Below, one piece after another: positions 2,474-5,316 of a stretch of 29,517 nucleotides of DNA. Both the position numbers and the translations under genes were made by a program. The notes below the pieces were generated by a model, which was given only the letters and a program-made list of their open reading frames with translations, did no database searches and was not told the origin of the DNA. The stretch's first letter is position 1, and each line of letters starts with the position of its first letter. Source of the stretch: a virus. Its lineage: Duplodnaviria > Heunggongvirae > Uroviricota > Caudoviricetes. The DNA lies in IMG/VR virus record IMGVR_UViG_2531839446_000026, positions 1 through 29,517 of that record. The stretch is one strand, 5' to 3'.

Positions 2474-2836
2474 TTGTGGAGAAAGTTGATGCGTGATATG
2501 TATGAAGTATTGGACCGCTGGGGTGCATGGGCTGCAGCAGACAACAGTGGTGTGGACTGGCAGCCGGTAGCAGCAGGCTTCAAGGGGCTTTTACCACACG
2601 GTAAAAAGTCACGCCTTCAGTGCGATGATGACGAAGGCATTATGATTGATGGTTGTGTGGCTAGACTGCGAAAGCATAAACCAGAGGAATATGAGCTGAT
2701 CATTGCACATTTTGTTATCGGGATTTCGCTCCGTACAATTGCGAAGAGGCGTAACTATTCTGATGGTACTGTCAGAAAAGAATTGCAGGCCGCACTTGGT
2801 TTTATTGAAGGTGTTTGTTTTATGCTCAATATTTAA
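2474..2836 (+). CDS. Q: Late-gene antiterminator Q (QuuD/phage-82 type)
   Basis: 120-aa ORF; motifs ..RWGAWAA..W..VAAGFKGLL...KSR.QCDDD....DGC.ARL.. match recalled QuuD sequence; position immediately before the lysis region. Confidence 0.8.
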   Translation: MWRKLMRDMYEVLDRWGAWAAADNSGVDWQPVAAGFKGLLPHGKKSRLQCDDDEGIMIDGCVARLRKHKPEEYELIIAHFVIGISLRTIAKRRNYSDGTVRKELQAALGFIEGVCFMLNI

Positions 2837-4053
2837 ATTAGCACGTCATTTATTAATAAAGCTAATATGCCAACACATGTTGGCATCCATGATAAGCAGC
2901 GCATTAAGTCCAATACTCTTATGCAGAATACTTCATTTTTGTTTAACTCTATTTGAGCTATTTGTAATCTGAGTTTGAGTTCATTTTGCTCTTCACTCAA
3001 TCTGTTCATCATAGTATCGAATAAGGTATCTTTTGCATGAATTATGCGTTCAAGTTGACGTTTTTGAGACACTGCGACTAGATAAGTAATAATAGATGTC
3101 AATAAGATCCCTAAAAATGCCACTATAGAAACTAATTCCCCTGTCATTTGAAATATCGATATTGCAGCAACTAGTGATACAGGGATGGCTAAAGCTTTGT
3201 TGGCTATTTCAGATACGACTTTGGATATTTTGTCTGCATAATCAATTTCAGCATCTGCAATCTCTTTTCTTGTTTTATGGAAAGAGAATGCAGACATATA
3301 TACAGCAAGGTTGTTGCTATATAACTCATTGATATCGTTCCAGTTTTTTATTATATTGATAAATGAGCCATTTGTCTTTGAAATATATTCAATCAGTGTA
3401 TTTCTGAATGTGTTCAGTTTTTCAAGATAGTGATTATCTTTGCTTGCATCGGATTTAGATAAATTGGCTATAAGATTGATATTTAGGTCTTCAATATCAA
3501 GGACCTCCTCTGTTAAATTAGTTTCAATTACTGCTGTTGTTGATTTCGATTCTGAATGTAGTACAAAAACAAGGCGATAGAAGCTGGTGTTTCTATCACT
3601 TTTGGTATCGTGGAAATGAGCTATGTTCGATAAACATGAAATTAATTGACAAATTTTTTCAATTGTCATTATATAGTCAGGCTTTTGGGCATCATAAGAA
3701 TAAAAATCACTTTCTGCAATGTAATAGTTCTTAGGCATTACGCCTTTTCGAAGAGTATTAATTTCTATAAACTCTCTTTTTGAAGCATAAAATCTATCTG
3801 CACTTCTACGTGCGACTTTAAATGAATATGTTAAAGTGGTTCCTGAATTAGGCAGATCATTTCCATCGTAAATCTCGCAACCATCAATTTCAATTTCATC
3901 GAATGAACCTTCGTTGAAATTATCATCTAGCATAGTAGTCAACAGCATTTTAATATCTGTTGTATAATCTATTGACGCCGAAAACTTAACACCGTCGAAA
4001 TGGGGTGTTTTAGATTTTCTAAATAAATCTACTACAATTTTCAACTGATTCAT
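2833..4053 (-). CDS. Hypothetical protein with two predicted transmembrane helices near the C-terminus and a terminal coiled-coil-like region; second gene of the AT-rich cargo cassette
   Basis: 406-aa ORF, ~30-35% GC by eye. Hydrophobic stretch LAIPVSLVAAISIFQMTGELVSIVAFLGILLTSIITYLVAV. Starts 19 nt downstream of the NA37-like gene on the same strand. No family recognised. Confidence 0.6.
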   Translation of the reverse strand: MNQLKIVVDLFRKSKTPHFDGVKFSASIDYTTDIKMLLTTMLDDNFNEGSFDEIEIDGCEIYDGNDLPNSGTTLTYSFKVARRSADRFYASKREFIEINTLRKGVMPKNYYIAESDFYSYDAQKPDYIMTIEKICQLISCLSNIAHFHDTKSDRNTSFYRLVFVLHSESKSTTAVIETNLTEEVLDIEDLNINLIANLSKSDASKDNHYLEKLNTFRNTLIEYISKTNGSFINIIKNWNDINELYSNNLAVYMSAFSFHKTRKEIADAEIDYADKISKVVSEIANKALAIPVSLVAAISIFQMTGELVSIVAFLGILLTSIITYLVAVSQKRQLERIIHAKDTLFDTMMNRLSEEQNELKLRLQIAQIELNKNEVFCIRVLDLMRCLSWMPTCVGILALLINDVLI

Positions 4054-4072
4054 TTTATTTTTCTTTTATAAC

Positions 4073-4744
4073 TCAGTTTAACAAATTCATTTCTTTTAAG
4101 GCATCTTTTATTTTTTTTTGTGCTTCTATAGGGAGTCTGTTAAATGTAAGATTCCCATGCTCAGCGTCATAGAAAATTGTAGCATCAGTAGTTATGCCAA
4201 GCAAATCTTTGTCGAAATTAAAACTATATTGATCTGCTTTGAAAATAACATTCCTTAATTTGTCAAGAGATGTTTTATTTATGACGAACTCCGAAGGAAC
4301 TCTAACCTCCTCGCTGTTTAAATATTGCATGAGCTCTCTTACTAGGGGGGCTTTTTTATCATCATCTAAAAATGCCATGTGAGTTGCAGAAATAGATTCA
4401 ATATCTGTAAGCTTTGCAGAGCAATTGTTTCCGAACTGGGATTCTAAATATTTTATTACTGCGTTTCTTACTGCATTTGCATGAGGGCGTAATTCTTTGT
4501 GTTTTTTAAAAAACTTTTTTACCTCATTTGGAAGTTTGCGGGTTGCTCCAGCTGATGCGATCCCCTTATCACACCCAAGAGCTGCGATGAAATATGCAGC
4601 AGCAGACTGTCCCGTAGTTTTGTTGATGAAGCTTAAGTAGCTTAATTCTGTTTTTTGAACATCATCAGCTTGGTGATATTGATAGTATAAGTGAAAATTT
4701 ATTTTTGCAGCTTGGTTAATATTATTTAACTCCAGATGTATCAT
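4073..4744 (-). CDS. YejK/NdpA-like nucleoid-associated protein (NA37 family), C-terminal part; separated from the N-terminal part by a frameshift at an A9 tract
   Basis: 223-aa ORF whose translation continues the NA37-like similarity begun in ORF 4767..5228 (YLSF..G...A.YF...LG pattern). Removing one A from the A9 tract joins the two ORFs in frame. Confidence 0.6.
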   Translation of the reverse strand: MIHLELNNINQAAKINFHLYYQYHQADDVQKTELSYLSFINKTTGQSAAAYFIAALGCDKGIASAGATRKLPNEVKKFFKKHKELRPHANAVRNAVIKYLESQFGNNCSAKLTDIESISATHMAFLDDDKKAPLVRELMQYLNSEEVRVPSEFVINKTSLDKLRNVIFKADQYSFNFDKDLLGITTDATIFYDAEHGNLTFNRLPIEAQKKIKDALKEMNLLN

Positions 4745-4766
4745 TTCTTCTGGCTCGAGTTTTTCG

Positions 4767-5204
4767 CTAATTGTTACTCCATTCGTTTTTTTTTATCATA
4801 GCTACAAGAAAATATCTGATGCCTGCTGAAATATAATCAGTAAAAACAATGTATCCTCCAGAAGACCAAGATTGAGATTTGGCTGAATGATACATTTGTT
4901 CCATTATTTTCTTTGTTAAGTTAATAAAGTCAATAGATTGAGAAGTTGCTGTTTGGTGATACTGATCAAATAATACCGGGATTGGACCTTGTTCTTTTGG
5001 GGCGCTTTTGAATACACCGTAATGTGCTGAGTTGCCTTTAGAGCCATAAAGAGCAACGACCCCTTCAACAAGGGAAATTACAACAGCGTTTGTTTTATCA
5101 AGTTCAGAATCACGCAGGTTGTATCGTTTCGAGTGGTCAAAATCTTTATCTTTCTCTTTTAATAGCTCGTGAACAATAACGTGGTTGATTTTTAGGTTTG
5201 GCAT
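4767..5204 (-). CDS. YejK/NdpA-like nucleoid-associated protein (NA37 family), N-terminal part; likely ATG start at 5204 (six-frame ORF extends to a TTG at 5228)
   Basis: N-terminus MPNLKINHVIVHEL and ..SGGYIVFTDYISAGIRYFLVAM.. parallel the recalled E. coli YejK motifs (LDINQIALHQL ; [21 protein letters not shown]). ORF stops 22 nt before the next ORF, just after a 9-A run. Confidence 0.6.
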   Translation of the reverse strand: MPNLKINHVIVHELLKEKDKDFDHSKRYNLRDSELDKTNAVVISLVEGVVALYGSKGNSAHYGVFKSAPKEQGPIPVLFDQYHQTATSQSIDFINLTKKIMEQMYHSAKSQSWSSGGYIVFTDYISAGIRYFLVAMIKKNEWSNN

Positions 5205-5316
5205 TTTTTTCGTTTTTGTTGGGGACAATATAGGTTGTATGAGGATAATAAAAAGTTAACGCGTACGCAAAAACTATTGTATCGTGTTAAGAGTGGTTAC
5301 TTCGCCACACAGCTTA

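Follow-up and report, generated by a model that had tools for sequence, protein, structure and literature searches.

A likely anti-phage gene pair of the DS-1 and type II PANGU kind in a variable cargo slot beside a prophage antiterminator Q gene

The closest described relatives of the gene pair examined in this study are DS-1 and type II PANGU. DS-1 is an E. coli operon encoding an NA37 protein and a 404-aa protein, and has been validated as anti-phage (DeWeirdt, Mahoney & Laub; bioRxiv January 2025; Science 2026, PMC13092281). Carried on a plasmid with its native promoter, DS-1 gave -log EOP values of 7.6 for Bas1, 2.7 for Bas26, 1.7 for both Bas3 and T3, 1.0 for T5, and 0.9 for T7; neither version of the DefensePredictor paper gives a mechanism (PMC13092281). 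The genes for its two proteins, DS-1A (WP_000355468.1, 391 aa) and DS-1B (WP_000150292.1, 404 aa), are separated by 2 nt. Type II PANGU combines a YejK-like nucleoid-associated protein (NAP), Pag2A, with a transmembrane effector, Pag2B (Li et al., bioRxiv 10.64898/2026.04.06.716658). Both genes are required, the system shows abortive-infection behaviour, and T4 denA mutants escape it. Upon infection, Pag2A-GFP leaves the nucleoid. The N-terminal domain of Pag2B, described as acidic and DNA-mimicking, has a KD of 19 nM for Pag2A. No toxicity was seen with any single-gene construct, and the NAP functions as an activator and not as an antitoxin; the mode of action of Pag2B was left open (10.64898/2026.04.06.716658).

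The window analyzed here (the whole 29,517-nt stretch of viral DNA, IMG/VR record IMGVR_UViG_2531839446_000026) contains three minus-strand open reading frames, at 4767..5228, 4073..4744, and 2833..4053. They lie between two plus-strand genes, an antiterminator Q gene at 2474..2836 (ORF list; 'antiterminator Q family protein' in RefSeq for near-identical loci; Pfam Phage_antitermQ) and a lambda-family holin gene at 5490..5816 (ORF list, RefSeq annotation, and Pfam Phage_holin_3_1). The frames, their strand, and the bounding positions 2836 and 5490 are as given in the original prediction, which had also pointed to an AT-rich block between flanks of ~52-55% GC; the GC content is 33.6% across 2837-5228 compared to 52.2% upstream and 52.3% downstream. 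The edges of the module were set where BLAST homology breaks off against loci with 92-98% identical flanks but different cargo (L004-L009). Based on these break points and on composition, the replaceable AT-rich module occupies ~2818-5245 on the minus strand and comprises two genes, here called A and B, together with ~41 nt upstream of gene A. On the Q side, homology to prophages with other cargo stops at 2808-2817, so that the last ~7-9 codons of Q fall inside the replaceable module, and the Q stop codon shares 4 nt with the 3' end of gene B.

On its other side, the module adjoins a plus-strand leader (5246..5345) that is common to all cargo alleles and was delimited from promoter and terminator scans, sequence, and homology. 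A -10-like GATAAT is found at 5244-5249, and the leader ends in a terminator-like hairpin (5316-5337) with a T-rich tail. This arrangement resembles pR'/tR', the leader is a candidate late promoter region, and the leftward promoter of the cargo probably also lies partly within it. In a sigma-70 scan, no leftward promoter of convincing quality appeared upstream of gene A, with promoter-like sites no more frequent than expected from shuffled sequence (12 versus 10.7). A locus with another phage backbone (L003) is homologous across Q and the cassette, up to position 5338. A search of 2400-5900 against Rfam gave no match, and a search for repeats that insertion might have left around the cassette returned only short ones at chance level. 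Elsewhere in the same prophage, the neighbouring KilA-N gene is split by an IS21-family element.

The Q-to-holin interval had been proposed as a cargo site, and the comparison of related prophages bears this out. Prophages whose flanks are 92-95% identical to those of the window hold unrelated cargo in the same slot, always on the opposite strand. The alternative occupants are Kiwa (in the sister prophage L004), PDC-M53, a TIGR04255 protein with two others, or uncharacterised pairs, with uncharacterised occupants found in L005, L007, and L008. Judged from these alleles, the stretch separating Q from the late promoter is a site of variable cargo. Such exchange of cargo, including Kiwa, among otherwise near-identical prophages argues against a core lysis or late function, and it is one of several reasons to consider it very unlikely that the pair serves the prophage itself, with a nucleoid protein organising or silencing DNA and a membrane protein acting in superinfection exclusion or lysis tuning. 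That possibility draws on the position of the pair beside the lysis genes within phage genomes, on the general DNA-binding nature of NA37 proteins, and on the PHROGs categories of gene A (DNA metabolism) and gene B (unknown function). However, the cassette lies on the strand opposite that of the late operon, McrBC neighbours a distantly homologous pair in surroundings with no recognisable phage context, and DS-1 protects from a plasmid with the phage absent.

Gene A (4073..5204, minus strand) encodes an NA37/YejK-like nucleoid-associated protein of the DS-1A and Pag2A type, which is 376 aa long when intact but is represented in the window by the two frames at 4767..5228 and 4073..4744. After correction of the poly-A tract to A8, the protein matches Pfam NA37 (PF04245) over profile positions 1-320 of 325 with an E value of 1.4e-45 and 156.6 bits, compared to a gathering score of 24.6 bits. 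A match of this strength is far beyond chance. On both points where the original prediction had exposed itself to a check by sequence, the outcome was favourable: the NA37 match of the frameshift-corrected protein is significant, and the cassette is variable cargo rather than a conserved part of the phage lineage. The predicted length of ~384 aa fared less well than the NA37 identity, as it counts from an upstream TTG at 5228. Translation probably begins at the ATG at 5204, which makes the protein 376 aa long, because RefSeq calls this start and the Pfam match begins at residue 10. No cysteine motif precedes the NA37 domain, which starts at that residue. Gene A also matches the NCBIfam models for YejK (NF001557; E 1.9e-38, 132.5 bits, under the equivalog cut-off of 341) and DS1_1_antiphage (NF053868; E 1.1e-28, 100.2 bits, under the equivalog cut-off of 330), and a sequence search of the PDB recovered YejK (9be2) with an E value of 3e-13. 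The Pfam and PDB matches are taken to settle the fold of the gene A product, which by these comparisons is a diverged YejK paralogue and not the housekeeping protein.

Gene B (2833..4053, minus strand), which follows gene A after 19 nt, encodes a 406-aa membrane protein of the DS-1B and Pag2B type, as identified from NCBIfam DS1_2_antiphage, hhalign, PHROG 5023, and an AF2 model (pLDDT 87.3). Its acidic N-terminal part (residues 1-285) has an alpha/beta and helical layout, a net charge of -11, and a pI of 5.1, and is followed by a C-terminal hydrophobic region. The size and the coiled coil had been correctly predicted, but hydropathy and the AF2 model place three hydrophobic helices instead of the two C-terminal transmembrane helices originally described: a transmembrane hairpin at ~286-330 and a C-terminal helix at ~386-405, with the coiled coil (~331-385) between them. 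All 46 of the 46 aligned gene B family members have an acidic N-terminal part (net charge -7 to -20), although acidity alone is no proof of DNA mimicry, as a pI of ~5 is common in cytoplasmic domains. Gene B matches NCBIfam DS1_2_antiphage (NF053869) over model positions 31-335 of 337 (E 1.6e-29) with 103.1 bits, under the equivalog cut-off of 315, and matches PHROG 5023 with an E value of 1.6e-126. The profile of its family aligns to DS-1B with an hhalign probability of 96.8%. A PDB sequence search with the same profile yielded just a marginal coiled-coil match (YbgF, E 0.04). A CorA-like channel and a ClyA-type alpha pore-forming toxin were considered for gene B and set aside, as neither gave a significant structural match.

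The two genes travel together. Gene B has 70 clusters of full-length homologues at 90% identity and, at 50% identity, 1022 representatives, and every homologue examined, in E. coli, Salmonella, Xenorhabdus, Klebsiella phage P7641, and the metagenome contig with McrBC, has an NA37 gene directly upstream. Genes A and B also diverge in step across alleles. In BLASTP searches, gene A is 25% identical to DS-1A (E 4e-13) and gene B is 22% identical to DS-1B (E 4e-8). Since the scores against the NCBIfam models are highly significant but below the equivalog cut-offs, the window pair is best placed in a family homologous to DS-1 rather than in the same equivalog. These relationships revise the most prominent claim of the original prediction, which had presented the module as undescribed and knew of no described NA37-based defence system. 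DS-1 has been validated and type II PANGU published; curated NCBIfam models exist for each of the two DS-1 proteins and are matched by the window pair; and the DefensePredictor tables already list the gene B homologues of two other slot alleles as 'predicted novel defense genes' (log-odds of 13.0 and 12.0). A proposed search with PADLOC (v2.0.0, 2023) returned no match for either window protein, a result that is uninformative about a defence role because the library is older than DS-1 and PANGU. Pfam searches of both proteins gave NA37 only.

Considering these results, it is likely that the two genes of the cassette form a prophage-encoded anti-phage module of the NAP plus membrane-effector kind, belonging to the DS-1 and type II PANGU family and carried in a variable slot. 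A role in defence is supported by the homology of both proteins to the validated DS-1 system. The logic of a sensor paired with a membrane effector, which was anticipated for this locus, has since been published for the same architecture in type II PANGU, and by analogy with that system a course of events can be outlined. In the lysogen, the gene A protein would sit on the host nucleoid, from which it would be released once a lytic phage infects and the host chromosome is degraded or fragmented by that phage. The freed protein could then bind the acidic, cytoplasmic N-terminal part of membrane-anchored gene B, and gene B may in turn damage membrane function, so that growth stops or the cell dies before progeny are made. 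The nucleoid-release trigger, the binding of A to B, and the abortive outcome are all carried over from PANGU, while we infer the membrane disturbance by gene B ourselves. At 22-25% identity to DS-1, function in the clade of the window could differ; no tested member of this clade was identified, and the clade is predicted to be defensive.

An AT-rich, two-gene operon that includes a membrane protein and resides on a mobile element might also suggest toxin-antitoxin or addiction behaviour, with a toxic membrane protein that the NA37 protein restrains. This explanation was rejected and is regarded as highly improbable, even more so than a service to the prophage, on the basis of the PANGU toxicity data, in which neither gene is toxic by itself and the NAP activates, and of natural copies in which gene A is broken. 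A frameshifted gene A occurs together with an intact gene B in at least 19 contigs; an unrestrained toxin would hardly be tolerated in such copies.

The copy of the defence module in the window is itself one of these frameshifted alleles. At 4786-4794 of the minus strand (T9 on the plus strand), alignment with L001 shows the homopolymer site at which the window has A9, in contrast to ten near-identical copies with A8 and an intact 376-aa protein (intact gene A being found in L001, L010-L014, L016, and L017). E. coli 20A24 (CP147044.1, 2218433-2221100) is one carrier of the A8 allele. The frames at 4767..5228 and 4073..4744 are therefore best read, as originally proposed, as halves of one gene split by a +1 frameshift (A9 for A8), with the 19-nt gap to the second gene as described. 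Across 21 loci, the run is A8 in 10, A7 in 10, and A9 in a single one, L028, which is 100% identical to the window and comes from the same assembly (GCA_000188875.2). As sequenced, the window copy is probably inactive or leaky. Long A/T runs are prone to transcriptional slippage, and at best slippage on A9 would give leaky production of full-length gene A.

Whether the cassette is here a decaying relic, with a real frameshift in gene A and a dead system in an already damaged prophage, is a question on which the evidence is evenly divided. Besides the A9 of the window against the A8 of the ten intact copies, frameshifted alleles are seen in other assemblies, including Logan assemblies of short-read runs (SRR/ERR), and the tract therefore does mutate in nature. 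The IS21-family insertion in the adjacent KilA-N gene is also in keeping with decay, and both genes are needed for defence in PANGU-Ecu. However, the restriction of A9 to the window's own assembly could reflect a homopolymer sequencing error, the window gene B is 100% identical to a widespread intact allele, and slippage could restore some full-length gene A product. It is also important to note that decay would concern the state of this copy and not the nature of the module.

A more far-reaching set of proposals can be made, although they are unlikely to hold jointly: that the clade is a functionally distinct branch of NAP-membrane immunity, that the poly-A tract is a contingency switch, and that the slot is an undescribed defence hotspot. 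A distinct branch might, for example, respond to a trigger other than host DNA degradation of the T4 EndoII type, or might kill through a new helical membrane channel. The coding poly-A tract, with its A7, A8, and A9 alleles, might turn a costly abortive-infection system off and on, and the uncharacterised occupants of L005, L007, and L008 may be new systems. Apart from these proposals, the slot behaves like a socket into which alternative opposite-strand defence modules are plugged, and it can therefore be mined for more systems. If functional, the co-diverging NAP and effector pairs would provide a natural set in which to study the activation of the membrane effector.

Compared to known systems, the window pair shares with Kiwa the combination of a membrane protein (KwaA) and a DNA-binding protein (KwaB) in two genes, as well as the Q-to-holin slot. 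However, the membrane protein comes first in Kiwa and second here, KwaB carries DUF4868 instead of NA37, and identity with Kiwa was rejected in the absence of any sequence relationship (no PADLOC match and no Pfam match besides NA37). Gene A resembles chromosomal YejK/NdpA in its full-length NA37 domain and in sequence, as judged against the solved YejK structure 9be2, but differs in being AT-rich and mobile and in sharing an operon with a membrane protein gene. Type II PANGU, to which the window pair is likened by description, is likewise a bicistronic operon of a YejK-like NAP and a protein with an acidic N-terminus and C-terminal transmembrane segments, with one tested example from E. coli; PANGU operons were picked by defence-island linkage, whereas the window pair lies in a prophage, in the interval that runs from Q to the late promoter. 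In DS-1, also an operon and an accessory system of E. coli, the NA37 gene comes first with the gene for a ~400-aa protein directly downstream, and the hydrophobic helices near the C-terminus of DS-1B correspond in position to those of gene B. In contrast, DS-1A carries a NinF-like zinc ribbon at residues 3-26 that gene A lacks, and the window proteins score about one third of the NCBIfam equivalog cut-offs. The window pair opens no new category, as both the concept and a validated relative have been reported before; if functional, it would add a diverged branch, found mainly in Enterobacterales prophages, to the newly recognised defences that use a NAP as a sentinel of host genome integrity.

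An AT-rich block of 33.6% GC (window 2837-5228) lies between the antiterminator gene Q (2474..2836, + strand) and the holin gene (5490..5816, + strand), with 52.2% GC upstream and 52.3% downstream. The original prediction of a two-gene cargo cassette in this block was borne out, and the ORF list matched all of its coordinates, including those of the three minus-strand ORFs at 4767..5228, 4073..4744 and 2833..4053. The first two, predicted to be the N- and C-terminal halves of one gene, are fused into a single 376-aa protein in L001, a near-identical copy in E. coli 20A24 with an intact tract of eight A residues (A8). 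This gene (gene A) starts in its intact form at the ATG equivalent to window 5204, and its product carries the NA37 domain from residue 10 onward; gene A is a single NA37 gene as proposed, but the expected length of ~384 aa counts from an upstream TTG at 5228, a start also picked by one gene caller (L018). The gene A stop is followed after 19 nt by the start of gene B (406 aa), whose stop codon overlaps that of the convergent Q by 4 nt.

Complete E. coli genomes contain near-identical cassette copies that lack one base of the window, and alignment with L001 traced the difference to a single additional A, giving A9 in the window (T9 on the + strand, 4786-4794) versus A8. Because positions 1073-7744 of contig ADUS01000054.1 (GCA_000188875.2) are 100% identical to the same positions of the window, the window very probably represents the beginning of that contig. 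When run length was compared among 21 loci with the same cassette, 10 carried A8 with gene A intact, 10 carried A7 and one, the window's own source, carried A9, both with gene A frameshifted; nine of the 10 A7 loci were retrieved through a search with the truncated product, which skews this sample towards broken copies. The sequence collection searched has 809 blocks indexed for exactly this gene B protein, and the truncated 223-aa gene A product was found in 19 contigs; therefore, broken copies are a small minority, very roughly 2%. Both frameshifted forms keep gene B intact in public assemblies, and the A7 loci include Logan assemblies of short-read runs (SRR/ERR). Given this variation in length, short-read assemblies included, the tract is a genuine mutational weak point, and the A9 of GCA_000188875.2 may be either a true allele or an artefact of homopolymer sequencing. 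Near its 3' end (4111-4119), gene A has another A9 run, which is in frame in both the window and L001. In addition, a near-identical copy in strain FT130 (L019, NZ_CP040090.1) has an IS1A inside the matched Q-to-holin region, with its NA37 gene called at 364 aa versus 376 aa, which is another decay route for the cassette.

A profile search with the A8-corrected gene A translation confirmed the predicted NA37 assignment over almost its full length (Pfam, E 1.4e-45, 156.6 bits), and the protein also matched PDB YejK 9be2 (E 3e-13). Its score against the NCBIfam YejK model (132 bits) falls under the equivalog cut-off of 341; gene A is a YejK paralogue and not the housekeeping yejK. The Pfam search found no domain in gene B, and PADLOC v2 (2023), proposed with the original prediction, matched neither protein. 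The decisive family assignment came from NCBIfam release 20, in which gene A matches NF053868 "DS1_1_antiphage, nucleoid-associated anti-phage protein" (E 1.1e-28) and gene B matches NF053869 "DS1_2_antiphage" (E 1.6e-29, model positions 31-335 of 337), both under the equivalog cut-offs (100 versus 330 bits and 103 versus 315 bits, respectively).

Gene B was expected to have two C-terminal transmembrane helices; instead, it has three hydrophobic helices, two forming a hairpin at ~286-330 and one at the C-terminus (~386-405), with a coiled coil at ~331-385 between them. By the positive-inside rule, we infer a cytoplasmic location for residues 1-285 and the coiled coil. Residues 1-285 are acidic (net charge -11, pI 5.1), as is the N-terminal part of all 46 aligned homologues (charge -7 to -20). 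AF2, run on the 46-sequence alignment, gave a confident model (pLDDT 87.3, pTM 0.66) with an alpha/beta domain at residues 1-205 and, after it, long helices, the hydrophobic ones among them. Because a Foldseek search of this model against the PDB gave no match with E < 0.5, the suggestion that gene B disrupts membranes draws on its topology and on the label "TM effector" used for PANGU systems, not on structure.

Homologues of gene B form 70 clusters at 90% identity, mostly of 400-418 aa and with all named members in the Enterobacterales; at a threshold of E <= 1e-3, an exhaustive profile search recovered 1022 representatives (clustered at 50% identity), of which 193 had E <= 1e-30. An NA37 gene lies immediately upstream of every homologue whose context was read, including those of E. 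coli, the complete genome of Klebsiella phage P7641, and Salmonella and Xenorhabdus prophages, in which the pair again sits right after Q on the opposite strand; a distant metagenomic pair adjoins McrBC. Identity to the window for gene A and gene B is, respectively, 68% and 53% in L002, 63% and 47% in P7641, 53% and 40% in Salmonella (L021), 54% and 42% in Xenorhabdus (L024), 29% and 23% in a metagenomic locus (L026), and 22% and 25% in L009. The genes diverge in step, as interacting partners would. In the Xenorhabdus hominickii prophage (L024), the gene at 2432-3154, two genes away from the cassette and with a DNA methyltransferase and the holin on its other side, matches the Pfam families Tad2-like (PF11195, anti-Thoeris family) and DUF7823; a counter-defence gene therefore neighbours a defence cassette within one moron region.

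The Q-to-holin interval is a site of variable cargo, as the original prediction held. Six loci with the flanks DUF968-Q and holin-endolysin were read; prophages with 92-98% identical flanks carry other cargo there, always on the opposite strand. These comprise KwaA and KwaB (Kiwa) in L004, a pair matching the PADLOC candidate PDC-M53 in L006, a very different NA37 plus 392-aa pair in L009, a TIGR04255 protein with two hypothetical proteins in L005 (1685-3412), and pairs of uncharacterised proteins in L007 (87 and 246 aa, 1683-2683) and L008 (273 and 161 aa, 1683-3013). The L005, L007 and L008 genes had no PADLOC match and, the TIGR04255 family excepted, no informative NCBIfam match; these three sets are candidate new defence modules, given that the same site holds Kiwa, PDC-M53 and NA37-TM pairs. 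Homology to the prophages with other cargo is lost at window 2808-2817 and picked up again at 5246-5257. In L003, a prophage built on a different backbone, Q and the cassette are shared, and homology stops exactly at 5338, where a + strand terminator-like hairpin (5316-5337) with a T-rich tail after it ends. A -10-like GATAAT (5244-5249, + strand) accompanies the conserved segment 5246-5345, which had no Rfam match and which we infer to be a Q-dependent late promoter with a short terminated 6S-like leader, resembling pR'/tR' of lambda; if so, Q, cargo and Q target site travel together. The first codon of the cargo is just 37-58 nt away from the conserved flank in several alleles, and the leftward promoter of the cargo is probably located in part within the shared sequence; a sigma-70 scan for it gave no convincing match.

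A second AT-rich island (6868-7356, 34-42% GC) follows the lysis genes and holds a 162-aa ORF without assigned function. Relatives have other cargo at this position, including a Trypsin_2 protein matching the PADLOC candidate PDC-S45 (L010, 343-1245, E 7e-45), making it a second variable cargo site. The window itself starts inside an IS21-family element (1-1304; istA fragment 4-459, istB 456-1238) inserted in the KilA-N gene of the prophage; alignment with related prophages begins only at 1305, and in these KilA-N is intact and lies directly before DUF968.

Homology and context lend good support to a defence role, which was proposed from the pairing of a sensor with a membrane effector. The claims that the module was undescribed and that no described defence system is built on NA37 do not hold: DS-1 is a validated relative, NCBIfam has curated models, a preprint describes the mechanism of type II PANGU, and DefensePredictor had already flagged homologues from this clade. 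DS-1 (working ID D390; DeWeirdt, Mahoney and Laub, bioRxiv Jan 2025; Science 2026, PMC13092281) comes from an E. coli genome and consists of DS-1A (WP_000355468.1, 391 aa), in which a NinF-like zinc ribbon precedes NA37, and DS-1B (WP_000150292.1, 404 aa) directly downstream. It was validated in MG1655 from a low-copy plasmid under its native promoter, with -log(EOP) values in the screen table of 7.6 for Bas1, 2.7 for Bas26, 1.7 for both Bas3 and T3, 1.0 for T5 and 0.9 for T7, and nothing more than smaller plaques for SECphi27; "a YejK nucleoid-associated domain" is listed among the domains newly validated in defence, and neither version gives a mechanism (PMC13092281). The DefensePredictor table for 3,000 E. 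coli genomes labels WP_016159279.1 (log-odds 13.0) and WP_000097747.1 (log-odds 12.0) "predicted novel defense gene" (PMC13092281); the former is the gene B homologue in the L002 allele, with 53% identity to that of the window, and the latter the one in the L009 allele. Gene A shares 25% identity with DS-1A over 221 aa (E 4e-13) and gene B 22% with DS-1B over 234 aa (E 4e-8), and a profile of 46 gene B homologues aligned with DS-1B over 206 columns (hhalign probability 96.8%). The window clade has diverged from DS-1, with no tested member of it identified, and may behave differently.

PANGU systems, as defined by Li et al. (bioRxiv April 2026, 10.64898/2026.04.06.716658), pair a YejK-like NAP with an effector; in type II these are Pag2A and Pag2B, a transmembrane protein whose N-terminal domain is acidic and "DNA-mimicking" and whose TM region is C-terminal. 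The E. coli example needs both genes, gives abortive-infection-like protection and was non-toxic in all single-gene constructs; T4 escapes through denA (EndoII) mutations, Pag2A-GFP exits the nucleoid upon T4 infection, and the acidic domain of Pag2B binds Pag2A with a KD of 19 nM, while Pag2B activation and action were left open by the authors (10.64898/2026.04.06.716658). The acidic N-terminal part of gene B is consistent with this model, though not diagnostic of it. The type II architecture of a YejK-like NAP and a TM effector is that of the window cassette, and by this architecture, as compared with the published description of PANGU, the cassette would belong to type II.
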